Source of the DNA: Candidatus Altimarinota bacterium
GTDB taxonomy: Bacteria; Patescibacteriota; Gracilibacteria; BD1-5; UBA6164
Direction of reading: 5' to 3'
Assembly (NCBI GenBank): GCA_025210615.1
Contig: JAOARJ010000013.1
Coordinates: 1 to 40,000 of the forward strand
Length of the DNA: 40,000 bases
A program made the position numbers and the translations under genes. The notes beneath the pieces were generated by a model, which did no database searches, was not told the origin of the DNA, and was given only the letters and a program-made list of their open reading frames with translations. Shown one piece after another: positions 9,636 through 40,000 of the stretch; position 1 is the first letter of the stretch, and every line of letters starts with the position of its first letter.

Positions 9636-9652
9636 TAAAAATTTTTCAAACT

Positions 9653-13893: not shown

Positions 13894-15378
13894 ATGAATT
13901 TATCTCTTAATAGACAATTTTTATTTTGTCTACTATCTTTTTTAATATGAATATTTATTTTTAACATATTTTTTGATTTTTTTGTATCACTTTTTTTGAT
14001 AATATTTTGTCTAATTATTTTATTAAATTATAGTTTATTTTTATGAAAAACTTGATTTAATAAATTTATTTTTTTGTTATTTTTTAGTAGTATTTTTTGA
14101 ATAATTATCTGACAAATAAATTATAATAATATAAATTATAAACAGCTTAAATTAGAGAATATAACTAATAATTATTCTAGTGAAATTAGTTTAGAATTAC
14201 AGATAATAAACACATATAAAAAATATGAAAATTATACCAGCTATATTTGAAAAATAATTACTATAAATAATGAAAAAATTGATAATATAAATTTGCTTAT
14301 TAATTTTTCTCCAAAAGAAAATTTATACCAAAATGATAAAATTATTGTAGACACTAAAGTAGACAAAATTAATAATTTTGTGTCGACTTTTGATTATGAA
14401 AATTTTATGAAATCAAAAAATATTTATGGAAGTTTGAATATCTATTTTTTAGAAAAAGAAAAAATTATAAGATGAAAATCAGGATTTATTTACAAAACTA
14501 GACAAAAAATGTTAGATGCTATGTCTACTATATTTCCTGAACAAGAAGCTAATTTATTGTCTTGAATATTGATTTGAAGTAGACAAAATTTATCAAAAAA
14601 TTTACAAGAAAATTTTAATAATTCATGACTTACTCATATAATAGCAGTTAGTTGATATAATATTACAATAATTATTTTGTTTGTATGAATTTTTATTGTT
14701 TATTTGCCATATTTTTTAAGACCATTTATAGTAGCATTATTTATTATAATTTTTGTTTTATTGGTAGGTTTAGAGCCTCCTGTACTAAGGGCTGCAATAA
14801 TGTGATGAATGTGATTTTTTGTTCTTTTATCAGGAAGAGAAAATAATTCTATAACATTACTTATTTTATCTGCTGCTATTATAGCCTTATTCAACCCATT
14901 TATTTTAAATTTTGATATAAGTTTTTGGTTGAGTTTTTTGTCTGTTTTATGATTAACATTTATTTATCCTCTTATAGAAAATAAGTTTGAAAGATTGCCA
15001 AGATTTATCAGGGATAATTTTTCTCTTGCTATCTCTGCTTTTGTTTTTAATTTGCCAATATTAATTTATTTTTTTTGAGAAATTTCTATTATATTTATCA
15101 TAAGTAATCTATTTGTGTTATTTGCGATTCCTTTTGCAATGTTGTTTTGATTTATGGCTATAATATTAAGTTTTGTTAATATAATTTTATGAAAAATTAT
15201 ATGATTTATAGCTTATTTCTTTTTGCATTATATAATTTTAATGGTGAATTTTTTTGGAGAATTGCCATTTGCTAAAATAAATTTGGATTTTTGATTTCTT
15301 AATATTTATTTTTTAGTTTTATATTATTTAATTATCTGAATATTTTTATTAAATAAAAATAAAAAAACTGCTATTTAG
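13894..15378 (+). CDS. comEC: ComEC/Rec2-family DNA internalisation channel, short form without a C-terminal metallo-beta-lactamase domain (494 aa)
   Basis: 'NNSGLTHIIAVSGYNITII', 'PPVLRAAIMGG' and many TM helices. TAG stop at 15376-15378, inside the terminator stem. Confidence 0.8.
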
Positions 15379-15384
15379 CAGTTT
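15365..15384. terminator. Bidirectional terminator between the convergent comEC and the minus-strand locus
   Basis: A 9-bp perfect stem, 'aaactgcta' tt 'tagcagttt', with an A-run on the left and a T-rich stretch on the right. Confidence 0.65.
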
Positions 15385-15389
15385 CAATT

Positions 15390-16037
15390 TTATGCGCTCA
15401 TTATTGTTTCTGAATCATATGGCCAATCTTTTAATTTTCTCTCACCTTCTGCCGAGGCTACTTTTTGTTCATTATCTCATGTTTGAGATATTGTTTTTCT
15501 TTTCTTTTTTGAAGCTTCTTGTTCTTTGTTTTGTCTTTCATTTATTTGATTCATCAACTTTTTTAGACTTTCAGAAAATTCTTGAGCTTTTTTTCTTTCT
15601 TTTTCATGAGATTTATCAACAGCTTCTCAAGTTTCTTTTGATATTTTTCATTTTCATCAACCTATTCATTTAATAAATTTATTTATTTCTTTTACATTTT
15701 CGGCTATTTCTAGTATAGCTTGTTCTTTTCATTTTTCATCATTTAAATTAAGCCCATTTAATTCTTTAGCACGCTTTTCAATTAGAGTATTAAAAGCTGT
15801 TATTTCATTCTCACTTAATCATCTCTTTTCTAAATTTCATGCAATAGATTTTGCAGCATTGAGAAAAGTTTCTCAAGCACTACCTTTATTATAATTTTCT
15901 TTTATTGCATTCATTTCTTCTGTGTGGAAGTTTGGATCTTTTTCTTTTTTAGGAAAATCTGTTTCAAATGCATTTTTACTTGCTTCTTGTTCTTTTGTTA
16001 GTTCAGTATTATTATTTCCTGTTTCAAGATTTGACAT
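15390..16037 (-). CDS. Soluble Lys/Glu-rich coiled-coil protein (215 aa), last gene of the T4SS-like locus
   Basis: ATG at 16037-16035, TAA at 15392-15390. Open under code 25. No TM segment and no recognised motif. Confidence 0.65.
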
Positions 16038-16107
16038 AATTATATATTATAAAAAAAATAAACTTTGGTATATTCTATCATACTAAAGTTTATTTTGCAA
16101 ATTTTGA

Positions 16108-16554
16108 TTAATAATATACCCAAGGAGCGATTATACTAAGTATTGTTCCTGTTAATAAAAGTAAAATTAATCATAAAATTGTTTGTATAATTCTTCATTT
16201 TGCAGCTTCTTTTGCTCATGAGTCTACTCCAGAAGCAGAAATAGCTATTCAGTTTATAACGATGAATAATACTCAAGTTAGAGCTGCGATAAGTGTTCAA
16301 TATTTTATCATTTTATTTAATACTTCCATAACACTGTTAAATCATTTTTTTATTTCACATTGGTATAATGTAGGATTTTTTTTGGCTGTATCAGACCATT
16401 TTATAGCAGTACAATTCCCTCAAGGGACTTCTTCAGTTGTTTCAACTTTTAAAGTTATTTCTTTATCGGCAGCATAAGTATTATTAGCTGTTATAAGAAA
16501 TAATCACAAAATAATACAGGAAAATAGAATAATTAATTTAATTAAATTTTTCAT
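16108..16554 (-). CDS. TrbC/VirB2-like T4SS pilin (148 aa): signal peptide plus one two-TM hairpin
   Basis: 'MKNLIKLIILFSCIILGLFLITANNTYA' then 'LIAALTGVLFIVINGIAISASGVDSGAKEAAKGRIIQTILGLILLLLTG'. Confidence 0.7.
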
Positions 16555-16564
16555 AATTATAAAA

Positions 16565-17485
16565 TTAGAAATTAATATCAGATAAAATAGAAACACTAGA
16601 GATATAGATTAATATTCAAAGTACAGTGTAAAGAATAATATCTTTTCATTTCTGCATTTTTGAATCATCTCCTCAAGATAATAAATAATAGTATCATCAT
16701 AGAGTTATAAAGAAGAATGCGACAGGCGCTAAGAAATAAGCTCATACTTGCATTAATTGTTGATATAATTTTTCTCAAGCCATTAAATCATTTGCAAATA
16801 CTAAACTCTTGAATCATTCTATAAGTCCTACAAAGAATAATCAGAATAATCAGTAAGAGAATTTGAATTTTCATTCAGTAACATTTTCTTCTTTTCATCT
16901 TGAAGAAATAACTCTTCCTCAAGCTAAAATAAACATAAGTATAGCAGAGGCAAATATTAATACCTCCAAAAAAGTAATAACATTTTCTGAAACAACTGTT
17001 AGGAAATTATCTCATGCTAGTAAACTTATACTTGTTCAATCAGAAAATGTATCAGGATTTGAAGTTAAAGATTTATCTTTGTTATTAGTAACAAATACAT
17101 CTTTTAATAATTCAGGAATATTTATAAATAATAATCAAGTTAAAGCGTAGTATAATTGTTTCTTAGAAGAAGACAACTGTTCTTCATTTGTTCACATTGA
17201 TAATACCATCATAATTCAAGTATATACAAGAAAAATAACTAATACTCACTGTAAAGTCGTTTTTAAAATGGCAATAGCACTACCTCATAAAATGTTAGCA
17301 TTTTCTGTTAAGCTAGCATTATTTAATCCTTCTTTTAACATTGAAACATCTTTTACACTGTCAATTTTATTTAAGCTATCTATTCATACAACTCATTTTT
17401 CATTATTATCATCTCAAGCAGCCAAACAAATACTTCAATAAAAAGCAGTAATAATCGTGATAATGAAAAGTAATATTTTTTTCAT
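16565..17485 (-). CDS. Membrane protein with signal peptide and three pilin-like two-TM hairpin modules (306 aa)
   Basis: I checked every triplet of this frame: no TAA or TAG. Loops are 'SMGTNEEQLSSSKKQLYYALTGL', 'SSRGKEENVTEGKFKFSYGLFGL' and 'LSGGDDSKMQKGKDIILYTVLGI'. Confidence 0.75.
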
Positions 17486-17515
17486 AATTATAAAAATTAA
17501 TTATTATATTTTATT

Positions 17516-18595
17516 TTAAGTCGGTGGTTTTATAACAGGTCATACTTCGCTTGATAAGAAGAATACTGTTATTGTATAACTAGCCGATACTATAAACATT
17601 CAGATAAGGGCATATAGTAACCATTTTTTTCATTTTTCCATATTCTCTTCATTTCATCAAGAGGTTACCATTAATCCTCAAGCATAAATAATTATAATAG
17701 TTACTATTACTAACATAAAAGTATTTCCCCAGTTTATAATGTCAGTTACTATATCTACTCATTCTTTAAAATTAACTTTTCATCTACATCCTCATTCTTT
17801 ACCACAATTAATATCTCAATAAAGGCTTTTTATCATTGCTCAAGATACTTTTACCATAACATATCACATTATAGCGTAGATAACTCAGTCTTTTCATTTT
17901 TTTACTTTATCTTCTTGTCCACGGGCAGTTATTAGTCTGTAAGCTGAATATACCATCATTGCTACAAATCAGAATCAAGTTAGAAATAACATAAATTGAG
18001 CAATAGGATTTATTATGTTTATAAGTAGAACTTCTCATAATTGACCATCTACTTGACCAGCATTTTCTCATACTCAAGGTTTATAAAGATTTACAGCTAC
18101 ACTATAAGCGATTTGCATAACAATAAGTCAGACACTTGTCCATATAACAGTTTTTTTAACATTTTGAAACTCTTCTTCAGAATTTTGTGTGAAAACAAGT
18201 CTTAAAACCATTATAAGCAAATATATAGAAGAGATGATATATACAAGATTTTTCATATCTTTTGCCACGGTTATAAGAAAATTATAAATTCCTCAAGTTC
18301 CAGTAACTTCCTCTTGAACAGTATGAAAACCACTTTTCATCTTTTCAAGAGGCTTAATTTCTCTTTTTGTTCCTTGGGTATTATCTTGACGACCACTGTT
18401 ATCATCTTTTCAACTACCTCAAGTATTTCCAGAAGATTCTTTTCAGCCAGCAGAATTATCTGTTACTATAGTAGGAGAGTTTTCACTTTCATATCATTTA
18501 TATTTATTATCTCTTGTACTGATATCTCAAAAAGCACTTCATATAGACAAGCTAAATATAAAACAGAATGTAATTATTTTTATAAAATTTTTCAT
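17516..18595 (-). CDS. Membrane protein with signal peptide, a Gly/Ser/Asp-rich linker and three pilin-like two-TM hairpin modules (359 aa)
   Basis: Loops are 'FTQNSEEEFQNVKKTVIWTSVGL', 'TARGQEDKVKKGKDGVIYAIMGY' and 'TSGGNEENMEKGKKWLLYALIGM'. Confidence 0.7.
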
Positions 18596-18638
18596 AATTA
18601 TTTTTATTAGAAGAAAAGTATTAATTAATTTGTTATTT

Positions 18639-21368
18639 TTAATTTGTAATTCATAATCTAGCTTCTATTTCCATATCTACATATTTTCTCTTTCTACCAT
18701 ATTTTTTTCTTGAATATTCTTTTAAAATACCCGCTGCTTTTGTGTTCTTATAATTATTATCCCGGATAGTTTTTATATCAAATGGTCTACTCGAAGCATT
18801 ATTTATATTTAGTTTACAATAAGTTGTGAAATTTGCAATACCAATTATATCTTGTTGTGATAAAACTGGAGCATATTCTTTTTCTAAATACTCAGCATCT
18901 TCAGCTCAGACCTTGAAACTCATTATAGTACCAGCATTACCGAATACTGCATCTTTAATAGATGGTTTATCTCATTTTTGAGCTCAAGAAGCATTAATTT
19001 GAGCAATAAATTGGTGAGCCATTATAAGAGCTAAACGATATTTTCTGGCTTCTGATAATATTTCTCAGAAAGTTTCTGTTGCAAAATTTTGGAATTCATC
19101 TACATATAGATAGAAATCTTTTCTTTCATCTTCTGGAATATCAGCTCTACTCATCGCAGCCATATTCATTTTAGATACATAAATCAATCATAATAATTGC
19201 GCATTAAGTGCTCAAATTTTACCTTTAGAAAGATTTACTAATACAATTTTTTCATTATCCATAGCGTGTCTAATATTGAAAGCTGATTTAGGTTGTCCTA
19301 TAATATTACGAATAGTAGTATTAGTAATAAATGGGCCAAATTTTGAACTGAAATAAGGAATCATTTCTTGTTTTTCTCTATCTCAAGTATTAGCATACTC
19401 ATGGTCCCAAAAAGATTTTACTACAGGATTTTGTACTTTTGAAGTTTTATACTTCATAAAAGCATCATCAGTAAACAATCTAGGTACATCAATAAGTGTT
19501 CCTCACTCATCTAAATCTTCCATTAATGTCAAACAACCATTACGGAAATAATGTTGTATACGAGGACCAAAAATTTCATCACCAAATATTTTTATAAAGA
19601 TTTCAGTAGCGTCCATTGCGGCTCTATCCATTTCTCTTTTTCTGGCTTCTGACTCACTAGATATTACCTCAAGCATATTCAGCCCCATAGGTCTATCATC
19701 ATCAGCAGGGTCAAAGACAATTACATCTTTTGCTCTTTCTTTTGGAGTAAAAGCTAGAATATCTTCAACCAAATCACCATGCGGATCAATAACTCATAAA
19801 CCATGTCCAGCCCGTACATCTTGTCTAGCTAAATATCATACAAATACAGATTTTCAACCTCAAGATTTTCAGATAACATAATGGTGTCTACCCCTGTCTT
19901 TTTTATCAAAATAGATAGGAGTTTTTCTACTTCTATATTCATTCCATCACATTAAAACTCAATCTTCATAAGTTTTAAAACCTCAAAGTTCCATATGAAC
20001 TTTTTTCATATTTCAGTTTTTATCTTTTTTTTCTAAAATAATAGGTTTTTTAGGTTGTTTAAGATTATGCGGAGGAGCTAGTTTTTTATATTCTAACCAT
20101 TCAATAATAGGACTTCTATTATAGTTTATATCAGGAAAGTGATACATACTTGATAGCTCATCAATAGAAAAAATTGAAATATTTTGAAACATTCATAAAA
20201 GTCTATATTTATAAGCAAAATATCTAATAGGAGTAAAAATAAATGGCAAAGCATCTTCTATAAGTTGCGGATTATCAAGAGAATTATTATATTCGTCAGC
20301 ATAAATTGTAGCTGCTCAAATAATAGCATGAACTCATTCTTCAGCATTTCTTGAGCTTTTACTTGAACAAATTATTCTAATAGATGTTCTAAATGATAAT
20401 TGCCCAGCAGATTCTCACATTATTTTTTGCGCTTCTACTTCAGCTTGATTAAATATTTTATAAGAATCTCAAGAATTGGCTCAAGGAGCATTATTAGGGT
20501 CTTTTACCATACTATCTGGTCATTGAAAAATGGCTACAATAGGATTCCAAAAAATATCTAAAAATGGAATATTTCTTTTTTTACTATATTCTCATTTCGC
20601 TACTAATCAAGCAGCTCTTTTAGCTTTTTTAGCCCAAGAGCCTGGAGCAGGTTTTATAACAATTTGAAATACTGCTTTGTCATCTTTAGCAAGACCTCAA
20701 AATACATTTGTGAAATTATTTAATCAATCATCTTCCATATATTTATACGTTCTAATAGGGAAAACATCATCATTTTCTTTTCATAAAGAAGCAGCTCTTG
20801 TAGTATATCAATTTGGTTTTAATTTAAATTCTCCTTCTTCAACAAATTCAACTTCAGCATCATTATAAAGCGAAGTTATATGTTGTTGTACTAGATTAGC
20901 ATATTGCTCGTAAGTAGACACATAAAAATGAACTTTTCACATATCGTATACAAGTTCCATACTAACTTTCGCATGATTGAAAAGCAAATTCATAACTGTA
21001 TCATATAATCCCGCTTCAGAAAGTTTATTTACAGCTTTATAAAACATACTCATAATTCAGATTTTTTCTTTGAAGTCCTTTTTTGTTTCTCTTTCTTTGT
21101 CTAATTTTGAATCTGCTTTTGGCAATGTAATTTTCATATAAACTAATTTTTTTGCAGTCCACATTTCAAACATCAAACGCATTGTTTTAACAATCAAAAC
21201 AAGAAGTAAAATAGTTAAAACTATCCCTAAAATAATATAAAGCACATCTCAAATAACTCAATTTAAAATTCATCAAGAAGTTTGAGCAGTTTCAGTTGCA
21301 GCAGTTTGTTTTTCAATTGTTTTATTTGCGTCTAATAAACTAGACATAAATACATTATAAATTTGCAT
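18639..21368 (-). CDS. T4SS ATPase of the FtsK/HerA superfamily, VirD4/TraG/TraD-like coupling protein (909 aa; 902 aa if it starts at ATG 21347)
   Basis: N-terminal TM 'VLYIILGIVLTILLLVLIV'. Walker A 'HYVIGKSGGGKS' at 19848-19874, where three Gly are TGA. 'VIDPHGDL', Walker B 'FYLYVDEFQNF', and the TraG-D_C-like 'ARKYRLALIMAHQFIAQI'. Track fragments 19503-19772 and 21057-21245 are in frame. Confidence 0.88.
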
Positions 21369-21449
21369 AATTTTCTTTAATATTATTTTTATTTGTATAA
21401 GTCTATCATATTTTTTTAAAAAAGCCAATAATTTAGGTTTGACAAATTA

Positions 21450-21490
21450 AAAAAAACTAAAAAAATAAAGAAGTAATAGCAACTTCTTTA
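21450..21490 (-). terminator. Rho-independent terminator after the Kazal-domain gene
   Basis: A 9-bp stem, 21466-21474 with 21482-21490 ('taaagaagt' / 'acttcttta'), followed on the minus strand by a T-run. Confidence 0.65.
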
Positions 21491-21499
21491 TTAAAAATA

Positions 21500-22618
21500 T
21501 TAGTTATTTTCAAAATAAATTTTAGCATTTTTTAAATTAATTTCTTGTAATTCTTTTACTTTTTCTTGAAAAAATTTATTATTTTTAGATAATTTTTTTG
21601 CAAAATCAGCAGGGAAAATAAATCATAAATCTTCATCTTTAAAATTATTTCATCAATCAGGTTTTTTATATCAAATTATTTCATATTTATCATCAGTTAT
21701 CTTAGTTTGCATTAGGATAGGAATAATTGTTTGCACTCAAGTATGAATTCATCACTCCTTATCTTCATAATATTCTTCAGAAACAACTATTACATAATTA
21801 TCAGTAATTCAAGTGTCTTTATTTTCAGTTTTTCAAACTATATTAAAAGCAGTTATTCTAGCTCATCATAAAGCCCTTACTCAAATATTATCTTTAATAT
21901 AATTTATCCTTAGTAAATCAACTTTTTCTTTAGTGTTTTCAGTAATATATTTATTGTTACTTTCATCTTGATTTTCGTCCTTATTTTCTTCTGAAGAATC
22001 AGAATTTTTTTCTGTATTATTAGATGTTTTTTCTTCGTCATCTTCAGCCACTATAACAGTAGTATTCTTATTTTCTTCTTCCAATTTTTTAATTAATTCT
22101 TGTTCTTTTTTTATAAGCTCTTGTTTTCTTTTTTCTAGTTCAGCTTTTTCTTTTTCTTCTGCTTCTTTTTTAGAAATTAAATTATCTCTATATTTTATAA
22201 AAGCATTTGTTACATTTTTTATTTTTTCTTCTGTTATTCTCGCGTCTGGTTTAACTTCTTTGATTTGAGATAATAAATTATTTATAAATTTTATTTTTCT
22301 TTCATAATCAAATTTATAAGTAACAAAATAATTATCTAAAAATATTGTTATTCTAGCTTCATCTTCTGAAATATCTGATTTTTCTGTTAAATCTCAGCTA
22401 GGTTTATCTTCCCCAGAACAACTACCAAAATAATCAGTTTCTACTCAGGCTTCTTTCATATAACAAGAATTTTGATAAGTGATTCAATCTTTCCCGCAGA
22501 CAGGATAATAATTGTTTGTACATAAAGAAGCATTAGTATTATTTATGTTTAATACTCAAAATATTCCTGCTAAAATTAATAAAAAAATTTTATTTTTTAA
22601 TATATTTTTTATAGTCAT
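21500..22618 (-). CDS. Secreted protein with an N-terminal Kazal-type protease-inhibitor-like domain, a KE-rich coiled coil and an acidic low-complexity linker (372 aa)
   Basis: Signal-like 'IFLLILAGIFGVLNINNTNA', then 'LCTNNYYPVCGKDGITYQNSCYMKEAGVETDYFGSC' (the 'PVCG-DG-TY-N-C' Kazal core). Track ORF 21881-22084 is in frame. Confidence 0.78.
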
Positions 22619-22674
22619 GATTTTGTTTTATATTTTAAATTATTTAAGATATAATACTCAAAAATAATTTTTGT

Positions 22675-22700
22675 CAAAAAAAGACTAGAATTTCTAGCCT
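22675..22700 (-). terminator. Rho-independent terminator overlapping the stop of the 812-aa gene
   Basis: The minus strand reads 'aggctagaaattctagtcttttttt'. The TAG stop (22696-22694) lies in the stem. Confidence 0.65.
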
Positions 22701-25132
22701 AATTCTCCTCATACACTGAAAGTATTTGTCATGTCTGTAATATCTTTTCTGTTTTTTGATTCTTCTAGCCACTGCGCGATTATATTTTCATTTATCATTC
22801 AGTCTTCTCTTATTATTCAAGACTTTTGTCATTGTAATATAGTTTGTTCTTTTGTTTTGAATCTTCATTTAAAGAATCTAGTTAGTTGTCAAAAATCTTT
22901 TGAAATACTAATTTCCTCTTCCATATTTAGCATCATTAATATTATTCTTATAAGTTTTTTAGCTTCAGCAGGTTTTACTCAATCACTTAGATTAATATCA
23001 GTTTTTAGGTCTGTCATTGTTCAGATAGTACTCAAAAAAGGTATAAACGGAGATAATCTACATTCTTCAAAAATATCTACAAGGGCCAAGTAAGAAAGAG
23101 CATCAGCTTTAGATTTAAAAGTTTCAGTTTTTCAAGTAGATATAATATTTAATTTAATTTCTCAATTATCTAATTCTTTCCATTTCATTCAAAAATTATC
23201 AGTTTTATTTTTAGCGTCTTCTATTGTAAAGTTTTCTTCAGTAACAGTTTTTCAGTTGATAGTAAATTTTGTCATTCTTTCACCATCTCTTTTTTGACTT
23301 TCTTTTTTGCTTTTTTCTTCTTCTTTTTTTTGCTTTTCACTTTTGTTTTTATCTTCATCTTTTTTAGTGTATTTTATTTCATTTGTGTTTAAAGCTAGTT
23401 CTTGTAATGAATTTGATAAATTACTAAAGAAAGTATTTTCCTCTATTTTAGGCAATAGGGACTCTTTATCATCTAAAATTAATTTTATAATAATAGGAAG
23501 ACCTTTTTCTTGTAAATATAATTGACAATCATCAACTCATTCTTTCCAGTTTGTAAATAAATCAATAAATTTATTATAATCTCAAGGATTTTGAGGTCAT
23601 AAAACACTTTGTAATTTATTTAGAAAGTCGTCAGAATCTTTAGAATTTTCATATAACCAAATCATATAATCTCATAATTCCTCTCAATCAAAAATTGATA
23701 AAGACTTAGAATTCTTTATTTTATTTTCAAATCTTTCATAGTGTTCATCTGTACCTATAATAGCTTCTGCTTCATGTATTTTTTCTTTTACGAAGGAAAG
23801 CGATTTTTGTATAATAGGTGCTGAAACAATTTCATCTACTGCTTTATCAAGTAAATCTTTTGCTCATTCAGCAACATATTCAAGAGGATTTTTTGATTCT
23901 AATGCTTTATTTACAGATTCTTTTACAGAAGAAACAATTTCACTAACTTCTTCAGGAAGATTTTCTACAAACTCCACTGTATCTTCGGCTAGAGAACTAA
24001 CTCCATCAATACTATCAGTTATGAATTCTTGTATATTTTCTCAAGCATTAGATAAATTTGCTTCTAGATTTCCCATTGTTTCTGAGAAAGAAAACATTTC
24101 ATCTAATCTATCTAGAATAATTTCATTATCTGTTCTAGTGTCTGCTAAAATATTATTTTGTAGGGCAAATTCTTGCCAACGGCTTTCAGGAGAAGAACCA
24201 AAAGAATCAAAAAAACTAGAATTTTCTTGTTGCTCTTCTTGTTTTATGAAATCTAAAACTTTTTGTTCAGTATAATCTAAATTATCTTTTTTTTGCTTTA
24301 ATAAATAATCTAGGGCTTCATCTCAAGTTTTATTTTTAATTATATTTTTAAAATTTTTGAATATAGTATAATTAAAACGCCATGAATTTTCATCAGTTTT
24401 ATAGAATCTTTTATCCTTAAGAGCAGCGCTTATTTGAGAAATAAGAGAAGTTAATAAATGCCTTTTAGCAGGAGAGGATGTAAGTTTATTATAAATTTCT
24501 TGTTTTAAGGCTTTAGACTCTTCATCAAATAATTTATTAAGGTCATTAAATTCTTTATTGCCAGAAAATACTTCTAAATCTTCACGAGTAAGTCAGGTTT
24601 CTTGCAATTTTTTTAAATCTTGTATTTCTTGCCTTAGATAAAATAAATTTTCAGAAGTTTTTTCTTTTGATAATTTTAAAAAGTTATTATATGCTTTTTC
24701 TATTTCATCAAATTCTTTATATATTTTGTTTATTTGTTTGGAATTTCATTTGTAAGAGTCTAATAATTTAGAATAAATATTTATTGCAGAATTAAACTCT
24801 TCACCTGCTTCATTAAGTACTTTTTTTTCAGATAAAATTTTTAAATCTCTTATAGTAAACCATTTTTTTTGTAATTTTTTTAGATCTTGAAATTCTTGTT
24901 TTAGGTAAAACAGGTCATCAGGTGTTTTTTCTCTAGATAATACTTTTAAATTATCATATATTTCCTCTATTTCATCAAATTTTTTATATATTCTGTTTAG
25001 TTGTTCAGGTTTTCATTTATAAGCTTCTGTTAATTCAGAATATATGTCAACAGCAGAATTAAAAATATTATCAGCTTCTTGTTCAGGAGAAATATTTTCT
25101 AAAGATACATTTTTGTTTTCTATTACATTCAT
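22694..25132 (-). CDS. Large, predicted cytoplasmic, helical protein of unknown function (812 aa) with an N-terminal 2 x 89-aa tandem repeat
   Basis: ATG at 25132-25130. Open under code 25 to TAG. Track ORFs 25013-25195 and 23252-23455 are in frame. No signal peptide or TM segment seen. Confidence 0.72.
24540..25075 (-). repeat. In-frame tandem duplication, period 267 bp (89 aa), two diverged copies
   Basis: 'tatttcatca' recurs at 24701 and 24968. The protein copies are 'NIFNSAVDIYSELTEAYKGKPEQLNRIYKKFDEIEEIYDNLKVLSREKTPDDLFYLKQEFQDLKKLQ' and 'EEFNSAINIYSKLLDSYKGNSKQINKIYKEFDEIEKAYNNFLKLSKEKTSENLFYLRQEIQDLKKLQ'. Confidence 0.8.
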
Positions 25133-25298
25133 AATTTTATTTTTGTTTTTATATTTATTTTGCTCTATTATATCATTTATTTTTTTATATTGCAAATATT
25201 AGAAAGGTTGGCTAAAAACACGAAAAATAGCTTGTAAAATTATAAAAAATAGATATATTTATAAAAAGTAAATTTTTAGTAATTAAGAGGGATTTTTT

Positions 25299-29366: not shown

Positions 29367-29437
29367 ACAAAAACAAAACCTTGAATAACTCAGTATTATG
29401 TGTTATACTTTAAAAAATATAAATATATAAAAATAAT

Positions 29438-32400
29438 ATGCAATTCAAATTTACAAAATTTATAACTGATGATAGGTATAATAAAACTCAAAAAATTATT
29501 TCATTTGCTGTAATTTCAGCGATGTTATTTATGATGTCAGTTAGAGTTCCACTTGAGAAATATTTGATTGAAACTTCATATGCTAGTGATGATACTTTTT
29601 ATAAAGTTGTTTCTATTTTGGTAAATGAAGATATTTATCCTCAAATAGGCGATAAAGTAAAGAGATATGCTAAAGATATTTCTGGGGCTATGGAAAATAC
29701 TAAGACTGTTATTGTTCCTATTCCTAGTGATGCGAAAAGTGAAAAAATAGCTTCTATAAATGAAAAATTTTATTTTGAATGATTACCTGATAAGAGTTTT
29801 AAATCATCTCTTGTATGAACTGTTTTGGTTTGAGATATAAAATTGCCAGTTGTTTATTTGAATTGAAATAGTGAAAAAACAGTTTTACCTTACGCTGATT
29901 TTAAAGATAAATGATTTATTTTTAATAATACTGCTTGAAAATATATTTATAATGCGAGTAATCTTTGAGATATAAAACCTGAAGTTTGGCATTGAATTAT
30001 TTCTCCAAATTCTTGAAGCAGTGAAACAAATATTCAGCAAATAAAAGATTTTTTTGATAAAGATCATGATTTTTATACCTTTAATTGAAATTTTGAAGCG
30101 GCAGATTTAAAATCAAATGAGCCGTATGTATTTTATTTTGATTCCTTAAGAGAACAAGAATCAATAATTTATGAAAAATATAAGTGATACGAAGCTCGTC
30201 AGAAAAATTTAGAAGACCTAATGTATAGGAGATATACTTGAGAACTAGCTGAAAAATTAAAAGAAATTTATAGTGCGACAAGTGAGCAAGAGATAAAAGA
30301 TTTACTTGAAAAATTATCTTGAAAAGAAGTTACAAAAGATGTTGTACAAATGCCGAATACGGATTTTCTTTGAGATGTGAATGCTAGATATATGATAAGC
30401 TCTATGATAAAGCAATATCCTGAAATTTTTAACGATAGCGGGATTTGAGAAATGAGAAATAATGTGGCGAATGCTTGAAGATATAATGCTAGTTTAAAAC
30501 ATATAAATGTAGATTTTGTTTTATCTTTTGTATGAAAACTTGATAAATTGTCTGAAGTTATTTTAAAAGAAGTAGCGACAGATTTGGAAGCGGAAGTGGA
30601 TAAAGCTGTAAAAAATAGTTTGTCTAAAAAAATAGAAATTCCTACAAAAATAAAAAAAGAGATTATTTCTTATAAAATGGTAGGTTCTTGATGAGGAGCT
30701 CCGTGAGCTCCAGTTGTAGCGACGCCTGAAGAAGTAGCGAAAGAAACAAATATTTACACAAATATTTTATATTGAAAGAAAGCTGAAACAATAGAGGAAA
30801 CAAAAGAATGTACTATTTATAGAGGTTCTATGGAAAACTCTGGAAAATTAGTAGAAGCAAATAGATGATATAATGTTCAATTAATTCAAGATGATATTGA
30901 GTTATTGAAAAAAGAAAGTGCTGAAAGATGTTTGAAAGATCCTCCTGAAATAAATGCGCGGTTTGGTTGAACAACCCCTATTAATATAGACCAAGAAAGT
31001 TTTTCTTCTTGAGATATAAAATTAAAAGTGTATGATGTTAAATCTTCTTTGTTGCCTTTATTTTCAATAGAAGGTTCAAAACAAAGCAAAGAAAGCGCTA
31101 AAGTTCCATCTCCAAAAAATTGTTTAGAAAATAATTTCTTATGGACTTATGAAGCCAAAACTGAAAAAGATTGACCAGGGAAACCTCCTAGGAATGTGCC
31201 TTTAAATCAGGATTTTTCAGAGGCTGAAAATTGGGATTGTACTTTTCCTTATACGCCTAAATGACCAGCAGAATATCAAAGTGCTACATACGAATCTGTT
31301 CTAGCAAAGGCAGAATGACAATGTGATATTGAAGTAAAATTAGACTGAGTAACTATAGTTGCTTTAAATCCTTGTTCTATTCCTATTTGATGAATTTGAG
31401 AAGTTACAACAAGGGAAATTGAATATTATGATTTTAAATCAATAAATTCTGAAATGGAGCATAAATCTCCAACAGATGAGGAATTAAAAGCGCAAATTAG
31501 TAACATTGTTTCGCCAGATTTACCAGTTGATAAAGATAGGTATATCGATTTTATTGGCGCGGGAGGTTATCAAAAAATAAAATATCCTTATCCATTTAGA
31601 ATTTGAGTTGGTAAAGATGAATTACTAACAATGAAAAATATTGAAAAAGCTGTTAAAGCAGAATTAGCTGGAGCTTCGGCTTGAGCTTGAGTTGATTTAC
31701 TTAATTTTGTTAGAAATAAAGCGAATAATACTTTCAAAACTTGAACAACTACAAAAGATATTTCATATTATGATACATTTTTATTCGCTGTTTATTGGAA
31801 TAATTTAAAATCTGCAACAGCAAAATATAATTATGTTTTCAGAAGATACTTAAACGATGTAGTTATAAATGATGACAAGTGATGAAGAAATGGAGAAGAG
31901 CTTAGTCTCGCTAATTCTATTATAGATGAGAATTCGCAGGTTGAGAAAAAAGTTCCTTATCCTGGGATAAAAAGATTTTATGAGTCTGCTCATTTAAGCG
32001 CGCCTTGAACAGCTGATAAGATGTTTATAAGTGTTGACCCTGAGGTGAAATGAGTTTCTCCTATTTGAGATATTGAAGCGGCTAATTCTGGTTTAGATAA
32101 TCAAATGGCATCAGCTGCCGCTTGACAAGATGACTCTGGATGAGGTAGTACGAAATGTAGTCCTCCTGAATGAGTACCTATTCGGGAATGGCTTCCTGCT
32201 GTTTTTTGTCGGTTGGCGGAAGTAATGGATACGGCTTGAGCGATTATGGAAAGTGATTGTTGTGGTCCTTCTGTTTTTTGAGAAGACACAGAAGATTTAT
32301 GATTTGATGAAGCAGAAAAAATTGCTAAGTATGACCAAACATTATGATGAAGAATTCCTGAAGGAACTTGCTGACAAGATGCTAATGATAATTGAATAAA

Positions 32401-35400
32401 AGATTGCATTGAAAAGTCAGATGAAATTTATATAGCTTGAGATGAAACTGGATTATATAACTCAGTTATTGAATATAAAGTTGCTAATAAATTTAAATGA
32501 GTTAGTAATGTAAATGATAACAAGACAAGTATTTCTCTTGAAATTCAAAAAATAGAAGTATCGAAAGATGAAACAAAACCATTGTCAGATACAAATAAAA
32601 AACTTGTTTATAAAAAATGAGATGATGAGAAAATTATTTCTACTTATGTGACTTTACCAAAGCCTTTAGTTGTAAAAGATTGAAGAACTAAAATAAATCT
32701 TATTACTCAAAATAGTGAAGCTTATGTTTATTTAAAAGCAAAAGCTACTTTATACGCGGATGCTTGAAAAGCTGATGTAATAAATTATTCAGATGAAAAG
32801 AGATTAGCTATTTCTTGAACAAAATTAAGATTATATTCTCAAAAAATATCTAGTATAGAATGATTAGTTTTATCGAGTACTTCTGATAAAGCTTTAGTTT
32901 CTGATAAGAAAAATTTATTCTTATATGATAAAAATGAATACAGAGTTAATGATAATAGAGATGCTATAAATGCTTTTTCATTAGCTGAGGATAAATTATT
33001 AATTTGAATTTCAAATATAAAAGACACTTGAGGAGAAATAAGTGTAAATTATCCAATTAAATTAAATATTTTAGATAAAAATGATGAAAAAGTAAACGAA
33101 AGAGATATTATAATTAAAGATGGACAAATTGATACTCCTGTGTCATTAGGTTCTATTTCTAAGGCTGGAAATTATAAAATTCAAATAGAAGATAATAGAT
33201 GATTTACTGAAGTTAAAGATATAACTTTTGCTCCTGATAAAGTGGACCATATTACGACAGTTTCAGCGACAAGTGTTATAGAAGCTGGTTGAGTAGAGAT
33301 TTCGGATATTGTAGAACTTCGTGATAAATATAATAATATAGCGGCGGGGACATTATATGATTTAGAGCTTGAAATTGTTTGAGATTCTATAACTTTTGGT
33401 GATAATACAAAAACTAAAAAAATTAGTCTTATAGAATGACTAAAAGCGTTAGATATAAAATCTACTAATATTTCATGAACTTCAAAAATTATTTATAAAA
33501 TAAAATGAACAGAGGAAAATTGATTTGATATAACTGAATCTTGAAAAGATATTAGAGTTGAAAAAGAAATAAAAGTTGTAGAGCATATTGATTATGAAAT
33601 AGAATTTCCTGATGATATGGAAGTATGAAACAATACTTATAGTTATAAAGTGAAGATAAATACGGCTGATGATTTTAATAGTGTTTGATTTACTTATTTA
33701 GATAAGATTTATTGAACAGCGCCTGAAGCATTTAGAATAGAAAATTCTGTTTGAGAAGGAACTTTTACGACTACAAATATAGCGAAAGAAGATGTTGTTA
33801 TTCAATTTAAGGTTGCTTGAATTAAAAAAATTATAGAAAAAAGAATAACAATAAAACCTCTTAAGCCTTTGAAACTAGATTTTGTTTTAGAAAAATCTAG
33901 ATTAAGTGCTGATTTAGAAGATAAAACTAAAGTTTATGTAACGCTTAGAGATGTATTTTGAAATGCAGTATTTACAGATAATAGAACACAAGTAGTTTTA
34001 TCTATTTATCCTGATTATCAAAGTATTTTAAAGACAGATGTAGAAAGAAAAGTTGTTACTAATTGAAAAGCTCAATTTGAATTAAAATCTACAAATATTC
34101 CGTGACTAGCTTTCTTTAGATTATCAACTTCATCTAATAATCTTTCTTTTAATTCTTATGAATATAAATGAAAAGATTGAGAAACTAAGACGATTTTATG
34201 AGTTTGAGAAAATGCTTGACATATAAAGAGTGGGTATTTTTGGACTGCTGACAAAATAATGGCAGGGAATTATAATTCTTTATATTCAACCCTTATTTGA
34301 GCGAATTATTGAGATATAAGTCAACAAGATTATTTAGCGTCTTGAATAATTTTTGATAAGGATAATAAATGACTTGCTGTTACGACTCTTTTAAATAATC
34401 CAAGAGATTATCCAGAAGTATTTTCTGTTTCTCCTTATTGAAATTTAGAAGTGTCTGACACTCCTGATTTAACTCAAAACATTGAGAAAGATTTATATTA
34501 TGGAGAAGGGCAAATAACAAAGATAAATTTATTTAATTCTGGATTAAATAAATATGTTTGAGAAGTTGTTTATAATTTTGATCATGCGACTTTAAAAGAA
34601 TGTAATATATTAGACGAAGAGAATTGTTATAATTTAACAGACAAAGACAAAAAAGATTATATTTATTATAAATGATTTAATAATCATAAGTTTGTTCGTG
34701 ATGGAGATAAAATAGTGCTTAGAAATTTTGTTGATGCTGATATTGTTTCTATAAATTGAAATTGACAAATTTTTGATGTAGCGAAATATTATACTATAGC
34801 GATTTCAGGAGAAAATGATAGCGAAAATTTAATGCTAGATGTTTTAGATAAATCTTGAACTGTTCTTTGAAAAATAGTTTTTTCTAATTACTGAAGCATA
34901 AAATTATCAAGACAAAAAGAATATATTAGAACGAAATGAGAAGTTATAATTTATCTTGATTCTACTGATTATGGAGCTATCAAAAAATATTATTGAGTTG
35001 ATAACGAAGATAAAACTTGATTAGCTGTTCGGTATAATGATGCATTTGGTTCTGATAATTCTACAAATAGTTTTGCAAAATTATATTTGAATTGACATGA
35101 AGATATAGAAAATGATTGAACAGGCTGGAAAGATGAAAATAAAATAATGCTAGCTTACGCAAATGGGCAATCTGTTTGAGAGGCGACAAAAAATTATGCT
35201 AGTTTTTCTATGGTGAATATTTGAGATCCTGTTGTAAGTTTATCTAGATTTAAAGCTGATTCTATAACAAGAGTTAAAGGAAAAAGTACTAGCACAAGAT
35301 CTTTTGACTCAACAATTTGAAAACTACTGGAAGATAATATAGATATTATTTCTTATGATAGTTTTGATTATAATCATGATAATTATGAGGATATTGTTAT

Positions 35401-38400
35401 ATTTTTGAATTCTTGATTTATAAAATTATTTGAAAATAATAAATGAGAATATATTGATAGATGAAATATTGCGAATTTAGAAGATGTGTCTAAAAATTCA
35501 AAATATTGAGTATGAGATTTTGCTGATGATTGATTCTGAGAAATAGTATTTTTCAATAAAAATTTTGAATTAAATATACTAAACAATGATAAAAAAGATT
35601 TTGTAAGAGTTAGTTTAAAAGATGATTTAATTTTAAATTGAAGATTGACAGATTTTAAAATCTTTGATATGGATAACGATTGAAAAGATGATATCGTTAC
35701 TCTAGACGATGCTTGAGAAATAAATATTTTTTATAGTAAAAGTACTCAAGATAAGCCGATTTTTGTGAAAAAATTTATAGTTGATTGAATGTGAGTTTCT
35801 ATAAATAGACAAGAAACAAATACTTGAATGGCTGTATATTTTGATTGATTAAAACAGTTAGAAGATGTGAAAAATATCTCAAGTGATAGTATGGATGAAG
35901 CAACAAGAGAAATAAAAGAATCTGTTTCTGGGATTGTAAACGAAGTAAATGCAGGACTTGAAAATACGACAACAGCGACAGCTCAAGTTTGAAAAACATG
36001 AGTAGATAGGTCGACTTTTGAGAAGATGATTTTCTATAAATTTAATTTTACTCCAGATAGTAAAAAACCTGAGGTAGATGAGAATTTAACTAAACATGAA
36101 CAAGAGAAACAAAATGTAGTGAAAGTTATAAGTGATATGGATTGAATTACGGAGGAAACAGCGAAAGCGTATGATAAATCTTTTGCTTTGATAGAACAGT
36201 GAGCTTGAAGCGGTTCTGTGGTTAGTTATGCTTGAGAAACAAATAATTTATCTATGACTACTTTTGTTAGATGAGAATATGTTGATTTTCAAGGGATAAA
36301 AATAACAAAATTTTCTGAGGATAATAATAAATCGCCTTTACAAACTGATGATATAGTGAAAACGACTATAAAAGTCAAAAATAATAATGCTAGAGATATA
36401 GAAGATTTTATTTTACTGGAAGATATTCCTAAATATTTAAAGAAAACTGCTGATTTCAAAGTATTAGTAAATTGACAAAATTATAAGCTAGAGAAAGCTC
36501 CAGAACCATCAAGAGGTTTTGATTTTATGATTCAGTTATGAACAGTTAAAAGATGAGAAGAAATAATTATTACATATGAAACAAAAGCTAAAATCTTTGA
36601 ATCATACCAATTAAAAGTTTGATTATTTGAAGATTGAGAAACGGGAGATGATTTATATTGAGATATTTTATGTAATAAAGTAAATAGAAGCTGTTGAGAA
36701 TCTCAAGATATGTTGAAATCAATATGAGCAAGAGCTTATGAAAGATGATATTCAGATTTATCTTGTCCAGCTCAGTCAAATATAATTTCAATGTACAAAA
36801 CAGATAAGGATTGAAATAATACTCCTGATTTTGTCGACGCACAAATAAAAGCAGCAGAAAAATTACAAGAAACAGGAAAAATGGAGGATTATGAACAAGT
36901 AAAAACTGATTACAATAAAGATAAAAATCAAAATAAAATACCAGACTTTATAGATGAAGTATTTAAATTTTGAAAGACTACTGATATTGAAGAATTTAAT
37001 GTTGACATTGATTTGAATGAAATACCTGATTTTGTAGATGAATTAATTACTGCCTGAAAAGTATCACTAAATACTTATGATAAAGATGCTAACGGTAATA
37101 ATGCTTCTGATTTTATTGACGCTTTAGTAAATAATTCTGATATAGAAAAATTACAAGAAGATAAAAATAAAAATGGAACTTCTGACTTTATAGATGCATT
37201 GATAAAAGCATGAAAAGCCAAACTTACCGAGGAGCAAGAAGCAGGTTATATAGAATCGCATTTAGAAGAATTGAAATGAGATTTAGACTGAAATTGAGAT
37301 CCGTCAGATGATTGAGATTTTTCAGTATGACAAAAAATTTCAGATTGAGATAAAACAGATATTCAATCAAATATTATCAATAATAACTTTAGATTAGAAA
37401 AAAATATTTTAAATAATAAAGATAAAATTTTATCTTATAATTCTGATAATAAATCTAATAAAAATAGTTCAAGTGATATATTTAATTTATTTAGTGTATC
37501 AAAAGTAAATGCTTTAGATTTAGATTATAATGAAGATAAAGATAATAATAATGTACCTGATTTTATTGATAATATTATAGCCTATTGAGCTAAATATAAG
37601 AGAATAAAAGAATTTAATACTGATGCTAATAATAATGAAATTCCTGATTTCATTGATGATTTAATTAATGCTGGAGAATTATTAATTGAAGATTATAAAA
37701 ATGATAGTGATAATAATTGAGTATCTGATTTCTTAGATAAGTTAACAAAACTAACTTCTGATGTCATTACAGATTTCTGAAAAGATGAAAATAATAATAA
37801 CATTTCTGATTTTACTGATTGATTAATATCTGTTTGACAAGCATATTTTACTGAGGATCAAGTTCTTGATTTTTTAGAAACAAATATTTGAGACGCAGCG
37901 CAAGACATAAAGGATAACTGATCTGATTGAAAAAAAGATCAAAAATATGATAATGTGGTAGAAGAAATTTGAGACAAGGCTAAAGATGAGGCAGAAAAAC
38001 TACAAGAAGATAGTGATGATATAAGAGATGACCTACAAGACTCGGTTGATGAAGCTGAGAATGTTCGTTTTGAAGCAGACTGAATGACGTGAACTATTGA
38101 ATTTGGTTTATCAGAGATAACAGATGAAGTTTCTGACGCGATAGATAGTTTGATAGATTGATTTGGTTGTTGATTTGGTTGAGAATGCTTTTCCCCTCCT
38201 ATAAATCGGGCTCCTCTGGCTCCTTGAAATGATATATCATTTTTATGAAAGCCTATTATTGATGGTCTTCATCCTTTTGAGTGACTTCCTATCTTTGCTT
38301 GGCCCACTATGCGTAAACCTTATGTTTGGCCACCTAGTTCTTTGTGAGCAGGTTGACGGTTTCCTCCAAATGGGATATGAAGTTCTATATTTAGATTGTT

Positions 38401-40000
38401 TGTTACTCCTACTTTAACTTGAACATTCTGAATAGCTGTTTGTGGTTGATTTAACTTTATAAATGGTCGGATACCACCTCCATGAGTATCTCCGATTGTT
38501 CCATGATGAAACTGTATTGTTATTGCAGGTCTTTGAAATATGTGTTCAGATGATGAAGAGGACAATAATGAATGAGTAGATGAAACAATTTGATCTCCCG
38601 ATTCAAGTTGTAGTTCTTATTCTATATTTAATTCATGAAGTTGTTCACCTAGTATAGATCCATCTAAAATGGTTTTACCACATGATTTAGTGAAAAATAT
38701 TTTTGATACAGATGCGAGTGATAAAGGCAATGTGGATTATGATTTTTATGAAGATTTTGCAAAAAATATTTGAACAGATGGATATTTTACTTGAGAAGAT
38801 TTATTCAGTTGATTAACAACTGGATGATGAGAATGAATGGATGTTTGAATTTGATTTAATAGTGAAGAATGATGATTTAGTATAACTATTCCTGATGAAA
38901 TAAAAAATTTGAGAATAGGTTCTTTCCCAGCGTTTTTTATGATGCGGTTTGAAAAACAAATGGAAGAAATAATTAATAAGGTTATGGATTTTCCAAAACT
39001 TATAATTATTTTACCTGATACAGAGTGAGTTTGGGATACTATAAAAGATGCTTATAATTGGGAAAATTTTAAAAATAGAGTATGAGAAAAAGAGAAAAAA
39101 TGAAATGCACAAATTAAAGATTTAAAGAAAAAATTAGCAGAAATAGATTGAAAAATATCTAAATTAGAAGCGAAATTATGAAAGAAAAAATCTAGTTCAA
39201 ATTCTTCAAATAAAAAAGTAAATAATAAAAAAACAGGTGAAAATTGAGAAGAATGATTTGAATTACCATACGAAGATTCAAGAGAAAATTTATCTGAATC
39301 AACTTCAGGTTTATTTGAAGATATATGAAATTTCTTTGATGGAAATGATGACGCTAGAAAAATGGATGCTGATAAAAATTATGATCCAGATGCTGAAGCA
39401 GCTACTAGAGAATTAATAGTAAAATTAAGACAAGAAAGAGATAAAATAGAAACAGAAATTTTCATGAGAGAAGCGGAGTTTGAATGAGTTAAAGTTGGTA
39501 CAATAAAAGCTGCTTATGAAGTTTTAACAAAATTACCTCTTTTGAATATAGAAGATGAAACGATTGATGTAATTTTACCTTGGATTTCTCCAGCTATGTT
39601 AGAAGAGATGATTATTAGATGGAAATTAACAATTTGACAACGGAAAAATGAAATAGAAGATAAAAAGAGAAAATATACTCTTTGAGCTTATTGATGTGAT
39701 GGATTAAAGAAAAAAAGCGAAATAGAAGCTTGTTCTTGAAAAATAAATGTATGAATAGACTTAATCACAAATGTAGAAGATTTAATAGAATCAGTAGATA
39801 AAAATATTGAAATTTTAGAATCATATACTGAAATTCCGGAGAAAATATATGATTATATGAAGAAAAAAGAAGTTCGGTTAGAGCAAATTTTGTGTAATGT
39901 GAAGACTATTTCTGAAATGCTTTGAGGTTTTATTAAGAGAAACTGAAAGATATTTAAAAAATGGGTAGAGTTGTATATTTTAATAAAATGAATTTTAAAA
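29438..40000 (+). CDS. Giant membrane-anchored surface protein, 5' partial at the window end (at least 3521 codons, no stop reached)
   Basis: I parsed the frame-2 triplets continuously from ATG 29438 to 40000 and found no TAA or TAG. I re-verified the frame at 32096, 38228 and 39998. N-terminal anchor 'IISFAVISAMLFMMSV'. TGA occurs on average every 20-30 codons, with no standard-code ORF of 60 aa or more in this frame beyond the first segment (29438-29782). Confidence 0.85.
36800..37830 (+). repeat. Array of about 9 degenerate in-frame Asp/Asn-rich repeats (thrombospondin type 3-like, putative Ca-binding) inside the giant ORF
   Basis: 'DKDGNNTPDFVDAQI', 'DKNQNKIPDFIDEVF', 'DLNEIPDFVDELI', 'DANGNNASDFIDALV', 'DKNKNGTSDFIDALI', 'DKDNNNVPDFIDNII', 'DANNNEIPDFIDDLI', 'DSDNNGVSDFLDKL' and 'DENNNNISDFTDGLI'. 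Confidence 0.75.

Follow-up and report, generated by a model that had tools for sequence, protein, structure and literature searches.

A 14.5-kb gene of a Gracilibacteria genome, read with UGA as glycine, encodes a member of a conserved family of giant, predicted surface proteins

The final part of the DNA stretch analysed here (the window; positions 1 to 40,000 of contig JAOARJ010000013.1, assembly GCA_025210615.1, of a Candidatus Altimarinota bacterium from the Gracilibacteria) is occupied by a single open reading frame (ORF) that begins at position 29438 and continues beyond the window end. This giant ORF is one real, intact gene that uses genetic code 25 (UGA = Gly), as found in Gracilibacteria and Absconditabacteria, and, judged by its sequence, its product is a member of an existing, conserved family of Gracilibacteria proteins that is neither named nor characterised. 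Taken as a whole, the observations are probably best explained by one code-25 gene for an exported, large and extended surface contact protein of this family. With genomes of ~1 Mb, Gracilibacteria and related groups either live on other bacteria or are predators of them. The assignment to this lineage and its code agrees with an earlier note, made from the letters of the window, which had proposed an episymbiotic or predatory lineage as the source of the DNA.

Reading frame, gene ends and genetic code

From the ATG at 29438 (nearest in-frame TAA on the 5' side: 29420) to the window end, the frame comprises 3,521 codons with 0 TAA, 0 TAG, 197 TGA and 14 TGG. Since TAA and TAG account for at least ~4.4% of the codons in the other frames of the window, which has a GC content of 26.6%, a stop-free run of this length would arise by chance with p ~1e-69 or less. 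The remainder of the gene was recovered from Joint Genome Institute (JGI) metagenome 3300045483, in which exact look-up of a 101-aa standard-code fragment of elongation factor G (EF-G) led to contig Ga0495722_104723 (188,322 bp), whose identity to the window is 99.99% across 17.8 kb. The region of this contig that spans and passes the window end (L027), retrieved with a 41-aa piece of the giant gene, shows 0 mismatches in its 10,563-nt overlap with the window, and on it the full gene comprises 4,817 codons (14,454 nt), with 251 TGA and 17 TGG, and ends with TAG, followed by TAA, 3,891 nt beyond the window end. A GC-rich hairpin and a T-run, together resembling a terminator, are found directly 3' of the stop. 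No tandem repeats of note are present in the gene at the DNA level.

There is a negligible probability that what looks like one ORF is really a set of separate genes, a pseudogene or a chimeric assembly. Such a reading would fit the public gene calls made under the standard code, which split the gene into many small ones; the JGI calls, for example, break it into more than 20 pieces of 30-181 aa each, and for this reason the gene is invisible under the standard code, as the earlier note had maintained. However, there is no TAA or TAG in 4,817 codons of DNA with 27% GC, assemblies made independently agree fully or almost so (that of a different sample, 3300045488, differs at 1 of 11,360 positions; L028), colinear single ORFs with 25-35% identity occur in at least 15 other genomes, and both ends are clean, with a signal sequence at the start and the hairpin behind the stop. 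The earlier claim of a single ORF of at least 10.5 kb without TAA or TAG is therefore upheld: the extension that had been proposed reaches TAG after 4,817 codons, and the alternatives named at the time, a chimera or several separate genes, are excluded by the concordant independent assemblies together with 15 complete orthologous single ORFs.

Every plausible gene of the window contains in-frame TGA. In the genes for serine hydroxymethyltransferase (SHMT) and EF-G, TGA sits at universally conserved glycines (e.g. YSE-G-YP-G-KRYY). A non-circular test was made on an alignment of the giant protein with 15 orthologs, in which only those ortholog residues specified by standard codons were counted: the residues facing TGA of the giant gene are Gly (49%), Ser (10%) and Ala (8%), with Trp outside the top six, and those facing TGG are Trp in 52% of cases. 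The SHMT and EF-G motifs and this codon test together identify UGA as a glycine codon (translation table 25). A reading as tryptophan is ruled out, the standard-codon residues that face TGA being essentially never Trp. The gene can be read only with a recoded TGA, as had been claimed, and the recoded residue, which the earlier note did not name, is glycine; within the window, the gene specifies glycine mainly by TGA (197 TGA versus 73 GGN, or 73% of Gly codons). A tRNA scan of the window and adjoining loci revealed no UGA-reading tRNA-Gly.

The use of TGA varies widely within the family. The ortholog of Ca. Gracilibacteria bacterium GN02-873 from the human oral cavity (L016, 2864-15229) has only 2 in-frame TGA in 4,121 codons, compared with 224-251 in the giant genes of low-GC relatives, a ca. 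100-fold spread, with TGA use rising as GC content falls. Also observed was an inconsistency in the JGI annotation of the matching contig, where EF-G is split into at least 6 pieces at TGA and a 351-aa protein of the glycosyltransferase-4 family (MraY-like) is read through 21 in-frame TGA.

A conserved family and its domain architecture

A search with residues 2877-3521 of the giant protein returned seven fragments, including one NCBI Gracilibacteria protein that extends past the window end; one fragment lies on a 152-kb contig with 47.6% GC, on which the TAA/TAG-free frame is 4,132 aa long, contains 13 in-frame TGA and is colinear with the giant protein. When GTDB was scanned with a single genome for each species, at least 22 loci were found, all of them in Gracilibacteria, 'Peribacteria' or unclassified Patescibacteria metagenome-assembled genomes. 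This number is a lower bound, as the search pattern used GGN where the giant gene has TGA-TGA, and low-GC relatives were consequently missed. The ORF is complete at 15 of these loci (4,115-4,566 aa, 2-224 in-frame TGA each), and all 15 are colinear with the giant protein. When 1.84 billion representatives were searched exhaustively with a profile, 570 proteins reached E<=1e-3, and more than 30 of these have full length (4,000-4,640 aa). Most public copies have been translated with Trp at UGA, a code 4 mis-annotation that raises their Trp content to 6-7% and leaves Gly at ~1%, and members of the family carry NCBI names such as 'hypothetical protein' and 'VCBS repeat-containing protein'. Because the standard code shreds the gene and the public copies carry Trp at UGA, the family is easily missed and is harder to capture with profile models and proteomics.

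The relationship extends from end to end. In BLASTP, residues 14-4815 of the giant protein align at 27-33% identity with orthologs that measure 4,000-4,640 aa and are single ORFs, found in more than 30 Gracilibacteria genomes and metagenome contigs. The NCBI proteins MDD2487531.1 ('hypothetical protein', 4,224 aa) and MCD5380636.1 ('VCBS repeat-containing protein', 4,004 aa, partial) are colinear with it from about residue 14 to the C-terminus. Like the rest of the family, the giant protein has an N-terminal signal, the same order of domains, a GCGFGGG...PGGNC(I/V)V block and the modules of the C-terminal part, and TGA is read as Gly. The block is found at residues 2908-3030 of the giant protein with its invariant S, P, G, N, C, V and C retained, the single deviation from the family pattern being N-R-A for N-W-A. 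With 4,817 aa, compared with 4,000-4,640 in the others, the giant protein is the longest member seen, and it owes its extra length to an acidic insert of ~420 aa with nine repeats resembling those of thrombospondin type 3 (TSP3). The family also reaches beyond code-25 lineages, since a distant member of 3,587 aa (P0143, at L033; GCA_039809385.1, JBDHUY010000003.1, 10001-20764) uses the standard code and has no in-frame TGA. On the 3' side of this distant gene are several unannotated proteins, a protein with an SLH domain and a WxL-type protein.

The features of the gene and its product are as follows; residue numbers (aa) refer to the giant protein, and structural statements derive from AlphaFold2 models of the N-terminal part of two homologs (P0008 and P0009), carried over to the giant protein by alignment.

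29381..29409, plus strand: sigma-70-like promoter candidate (TTGAAT, 17-nt spacer, TG-TATACT), 28 nt 5' of the ATG; consensus match only
29438..40000, plus strand: giant gene, first 3,521 of 4,817 codons; frame count and end-to-end alignment with orthologs of 4,000-4,640 aa
29495..29551, plus strand: N-terminal hydrophobic segment, aa 20-38, followed by '...ETSYA/SDD'; the sole Kyte-Doolittle peak of >=1.6
29600..30757, plus strand: conserved N-terminal alpha/beta module with helical extension, ~aa 55-440; homolog alignment and AlphaFold2
~aa 620-800: small alpha+beta subdomain; AlphaFold2 model of a homolog
~aa 900-990: Cys-rich linker; composition
32435..34237, plus strand: array of Ig-like beta-sandwiches, ~aa 1000-1600; AlphaFold2/Foldseek on a homolog, boundaries transferred by alignment
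35285..35767, plus strand: FG-GAP/VCBS repeats, ~aa 1950-2110, e.g. 'DMDNDGKDD'; Pfam matches of orthologs at the aligned position
36245..36637, plus strand: DUF11-like beta-sandwich, ~aa 2270-2400; position transferred by alignment
36803..37822, plus strand: nine TSP3-like acidic repeats in two blocks; motif 'D.(D/N).N(G/N)..(D/S)F(I/V)D'
38129..38569, plus strand: nearly uncharged, conserved Gly/Pro/Cys-rich block, aa 2898-3044; charge scan and family alignment
39035..39697, plus strand: Lys/Glu-rich segment with low-complexity insert, ~aa 3200-3420; K 14%, E 13%
39866..40000 (start), plus strand: most conserved module of the family, aa 3477-~3760, mostly past the window end; column conservation
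~aa 3760-4100: Lys/Glu/Ser-rich region; composition
aa 4100-4817: beta-rich region with further DxDxDG motifs; sequence

Promoter-consensus sites such as the one listed number 7 in the region, compared with 3.7 expected in this AT-rich DNA.

The part of the protein encoded in the window contains K (9.6%), D (9.1%), I (8.7%), E (7.8%), G (7.7%), N (7.2%) and S (7.1%). Just one segment of the whole protein is strongly hydrophobic, IISFAVISAMLFMMSV at residues 20-35, and most orthologs likewise have a single N-terminal Kyte-Doolittle peak of >=1.6. The h-region and a following '(T/S)xA' site, similar to Ala-x-Ala, are conserved among homologs, so that the segment may be a cleaved Sec signal peptide, the alternative being a signal anchor. 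The N-terminal module that follows is characterised by the invariant motifs LVGTVL.G..P.P, PY.DF, E.WH..I.P, HDFY and N.GRY, and is modelled with high confidence in both homologs (predicted local distance difference test score, pLDDT, ~85-95).

The central part of the chain contains several beta-type modules. Residues 965-1160 of the P0008 model form two tandem beta-sandwiches that match Ig domains of Fab fragments (Foldseek E 7e-5). FG-GAP_3 repeats exceed the Pfam cut-off in three orthologs (L001, 2.6e-6; L016, 5.6e-13; L007, 9.4e-10); the giant protein itself has no match to FG-GAP (PF13517/PF01839) at E<=0.1 but contains the motif DMDNDGKDD, and here it matches the closest ortholog at 52-55% identity. 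As judged from the orthologs, these are candidate repeats of an integrin-alpha-like, seven-bladed beta-propeller. Matches to DUF11, DUF7507 and DUF7927 are weak and below threshold in the orthologs. The earlier description of a body rich in beta-type modules is borne out by the Ig-like domains and FG-GAP repeats, which together make up less than a quarter of the protein.

The acidic insert spans residues ~2480-2900 (D 16%, N 11%) and is missing in the closest relative. TSP3-type motifs, six by strict and nine by relaxed matching, lie at residues 2456-2795 and have no Pfam match; their number, nine, compares with 0-2 in 15 orthologs, and the motif suggests that they would bind calcium. The Gly/Pro/Cys block (pattern GFGCGFGGxC...N(W/R)APLAPG...FRLFVTPTLTG...SPxVPGGNC(I/V)V) has the lowest charge of the protein, with 10 D/E/K/R per 120 aa compared with a mean of 34 (sd 6.6), holds the invariant columns of the family and is 58% identical to the closest ortholog. 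These ~145 residues with their conserved Cys are flanked by very acidic sequence, and one may speculate that the block could be membrane-active. The Lys/Glu-rich segment at residues ~3200-3420 is variable and gapped against orthologs and, from its composition, is probably a coiled coil. The most conserved module, which is Pro-rich and hydrophobic, reaches a column conservation of 0.7 over 16 orthologs and 64-68% identity to the closest ortholog; its motifs are WVELY.LIK.ILK.W, CxxCKNER, FPKWPDIILDLHN, an LP-rich stretch and PF.PEWRAGDQIA, and it contains amphipathic hydrophobic helices. Three hydrophobic helices at residues ~3510-3680 were considered as transmembrane segments and rejected, as their Kyte-Doolittle values are ~1.6-1.9, they contain several charges and they are inconsistent across orthologs.

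Several known folds and anchors were tried without success. NCBIfam searches of the orthologs gave nothing meaningful, searches of the PDB with family profiles, including those of the N-terminal module and the Gly/Pro/Cys block, produced no match, and neither of these two regions nor the Pro-rich module matches Pfam, NCBIfam or PDB. A Foldseek comparison of the N-terminal homolog model with the PDB returned nothing at E<=1e-3, the best match being the flavodoxin-like fold of lumazine synthase (6e-3). A peptidase of family C25 (clan CD, gingipain-like) in the N-terminal module was rejected because there is no Pfam or PDB-profile match and no peptidase among the top 50 Foldseek matches (model pLDDT 76). 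Membership of the invasin/intimin group is likewise not supported, with Invasin_D3 and Big_1 scoring 16-25 bits in orthologs, below the Pfam cut-offs of 33-35; the Ig-like fold as such is backed by AlphaFold2 and Foldseek. The only LPXTG-type motif, LPDTG at residue 4705, is internal, lies 112 residues from the end and lacks a hydrophobic tail, and so does not fit a sortase-anchored protein; the C-terminus reads ...FKVEDNYVINK. An adhesin of the RTX/BAP type, secreted by a type I secretion system (T1SS), was also rejected, as there is a lone chance GGEGMD at residue 3130 and no C-terminal repeat array. Of the 'anchored' surface protein of the earlier note, therefore, the N-terminal signal or anchor stands, but the anchoring is not supported, since the lone segment may be cleaved and there is no C-terminal LPXTG or transmembrane anchor.

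Candidate roles of the giant protein

From its sequence, the giant protein is likely to reside on the cell surface; a role in contact with host or prey, which is argued by analogy, has about an even chance. In the arrangement that we favour, the protein would be exported through Sec by its N-terminal signal or anchor, the tandem Ig-like domains would form a stalk, and the FG-GAP/VCBS, DUF11-like and acidic TSP3-like repeats, the latter expanded in this lineage, would serve as calcium-dependent binding elements. Any function specific to the family would reside in three modules, each of unknown fold: the alpha/beta module at the N-terminus, the Gly/Pro/Cys block and the hydrophobic module rich in Pro. 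The protein would contact other cells or the envelope.

Compared with the closest relative (L018/L030), the giant protein shows 33% identity, whereas DnaE shows 65% and the ATPase of a nearby locus resembling a type IV secretion system (T4SS) shows 74%. Faster divergence than that of the neighbours is a pattern typical of exposed surface proteins. The role as adhesin or in host contact is plausible but unproven, and the 'host-attachment adhesin' of the earlier note went further than the evidence, which consists of generic adhesion-type domains, fast divergence and analogy.

The closest analogies come from other lineages. Vampirococcus lugosii, a related, predatory bacterium belonging to the candidate phyla radiation, with code 25 and a tiny genome, has giant membrane proteins of 1,392-4,163 aa, for which DUF11, integrin and similar domains are listed and for which host recognition or attachment was proposed (PMC8080830). 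One of these, VAMP_16_20 (4,163 aa, 'hypothetical'), resembles the giant protein in size, lineage and description. A host-contact role has also been proposed for the SPEARE surface proteins of Nanohaloarchaeota (6,000-9,400 aa; PMC10266531), which share with the giant protein an origin in an ultra-small episymbiont lineage, a Sec signal, Ig-like domains, beta-propellers (of which the giant protein has candidate repeats) and type IV secretion ATPases nearby. The two are not related in sequence, however: SPEARE proteins have a VirB4/TraG-like ATPase domain of their own, transmembrane helices and a second ATPase encoded adjacently, whereas the giant protein has no ATPase domain and one hydrophobic segment, and its T4SS genes lie at least 4 kb away on the other strand. 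With adhesins of the integrin-alpha-like FG-GAP/VCBS and invasin/intimin types, the giant protein has in common FG-GAP_3 repeats (in orthologs) and Ig-like domains behind a signal, but, unlike them, it lacks a beta-barrel and LPXTG, RTX or T1SS signals.

A number of observations weigh against a surface contact protein. Pfam recognises no domain in the giant protein itself, its domains having been assigned by way of the orthologs; over half of the chain has no match in Pfam, NCBIfam or PDB; hydrophobicity and motif scans found no anchor besides the possibly cleaved N-terminal segment; and the gene is placed among housekeeping genes (dnaE 5'; bipA, rpsR, ssb and rpsF 3'). For an adhesin, moreover, length (4.0-4.8 kaa) and domain order are unusually constant, with colinearity maintained at 25-35% identity, and conservation is fairly even along the chain, without the hypervariable tip that the comparison of orthologs suggested in the earlier note might have revealed. 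This constancy and evenness would suit a conserved role of a structural or machine-like kind no less than an adhesin. They are among the points in favour of a structural envelope protein (an S-layer-like or fibrous coat scaffold, or a protein for cell-cell stacking) needed by every Gracilibacteria cell rather than for a specific host, as are the housekeeping neighbourhood, the proposal that the giant proteins of Vampirococcus make its fibrous surface (PMC8080830) and the location of the SLH-domain protein ~5 kb 3' of the distant family member. We consider such a scaffold possible but rather doubtful, because Pfam searches detected no SLH or other wall-binding domain in the giant protein, because it diverges fast relative to its neighbours and because the lineage-specific expansion of repeats fits adaptation to an external partner. 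Roles in the envelope scaffold and in contact are not mutually exclusive.

A link between the giant protein and the nearby T4SS is improbable. The locus is real, as the earlier note had stated, but it lies at least 4 kb 5' of the giant gene on the opposite strand, with dnaE (plus strand) between them, and as an argument for an adhesin its proximity is weak. PrgB is an adhesin in Gram-positive conjugation, and the giant protein could by analogy be the adhesin of this system for mating-pair or host contact or, in the manner of SPEARE, part of a 'straw' to the host. Such a partnership would be in keeping with a survey of T4SS in Patescibacteria that saw no PrgB-like adhesin and thus leaves this role vacant (PMC12102498), with the giant surface proteins of DPANN archaea that carry or adjoin VirB4/TraG ATPases (PMC10266531), and with the occurrence of pilin or ATPase genes within 10 kb of a family member in four lineages: the present genome; L018/L030, with the ATPase ortholog 7 kb 5' of the giant gene, behind aspS, and pilins ~5 kb 3'; L032, with pilins 7 kb 3'; and L033, with pilins 3 kb 5'. 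It is nevertheless unlikely, as these genes are never adjacent or co-oriented, the genes in between are housekeeping genes that differ by lineage (dnaE and aspS; bipA and rps genes; radical-SAM genes), and the giant protein has neither an ATPase domain nor similarity to PrgB. No T4SS gene was found within 10 kb in L029 or in the short flanks of ~20 other loci with a pilin hidden Markov model that is crude, and pilin genes are multi-copy and scattered in these genomes (PMC12102498). Since the arrangement differs each time and such genes are lacking around these other loci, the proximity recurs loosely and is not a conserved linkage. Even less probable is a secreted carrier of an enzyme or toxin, in which the N-terminal or the C-terminal modules degrade or perforate the prey envelope and the Ig-like and FG-GAP parts are mere spacers. 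The invariant N-terminal residues, including 'E.WH' and the cysteine of 'QC.I.RG', would be in keeping with such a role, the layout of the module is reminiscent of clan-CD (gingipain-like) domains, membranes could be engaged by the uncharged Gly/Pro/Cys block and by the hydrophobic helices, which are amphipathic, and a connection with the degradation of cell walls has been made for giant genes in predatory bacteria (bioRxiv 10.1101/2023.11.21.568195); on the other hand, Pfam, NCBIfam and PDB profile searches identified no enzyme family, Foldseek found no peptidase and only a generic flavodoxin-like fold at best, and the C-terminus is conserved, in contrast to that of polymorphic toxin-delivery proteins. 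A more elaborate form of the favoured contact protein, in which the stalk sets the three modules of unknown fold on the prey envelope and these insert into it or open it to form a feeding junction, possibly with T4SS-like pili, is a long shot; if true, proteins for attack or uptake between cells would gain a new kind.

The giant gene, at 14.5 kb, takes up more than 1% of a ~1-Mb genome. This investment, together with conservation across the group and a rate of evolution about twice that of its neighbours, makes it an obvious candidate for the contact apparatus. Giant surface proteins are to be expected in these lineages, yet a conserved protein of ~4,000-4,800 aa is still a good entry to the study of host engagement, and the three conserved modules without known relative are targets for structural work and for genetics in cultivable relatives.

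Genomic surroundings

On the 3' side, the giant gene is followed by genes for a KilA-N protein, BipA, RpsR, Ssb and RpsF, and the closest relative keeps the order dnaE-giant-bipA-rpsR-ssb-rpsF. In several other lineages the shared downstream neighbours are tsaB, a PH-domain membrane protein and trxB, the clustering of flanks thus revealing housekeeping genes only. At the position where L030 has no such genes, the giant gene and bipA are separated here by the KilA-N gene together with several small ORFs (L027, 14792-15451), and this difference suggests that a small stretch of mobile or phage origin was inserted.

The T4SS-like locus forms part of a minus-strand block (15390-25198), in which a Kazal-domain protein and a coiled-coil protein of 812 aa are also encoded. 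The locus itself, at 16108-21446 on the minus strand, comprises a VirD4/T4CP-like ATPase and three T4SS_pilin (PF18895) proteins, which are 148, 306 and 359 aa long and of which two have 2-3 pilin domains each; the ATPase (909 aa) is the protein that shares 74% identity with its counterpart, a 'DUF8128' protein, in the closest relative. Neither a relaxase nor VirB4 was recognised within the window. The Kazal-type protein (372 aa) is a secreted protein with a protease-inhibitor domain. The coiled-coil protein (22694-25198, minus strand) begins with an internal duplication of ~75 aa (residues ~20-95 and 110-185) with the motif '...NSA(V/I)(D/N)IYS(E/K)L...YKG...IYK(K/E)FDEIE...LFYL(K/R)QE(F/I)QDLKKLQ'.

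The sign of the GC skew flips at 15000-16000 and at ~25000 together with gene orientation, being positive over plus-strand genes and negative over the minus-strand T4SS block; the skew in the window therefore tracks the direction of transcription and marks no replication origin. Directly after fusA, at 9581-10777, is a homolog of VanY/M15-type D-Ala-D-Ala peptidases that carries a long low-complexity N-terminal extension.

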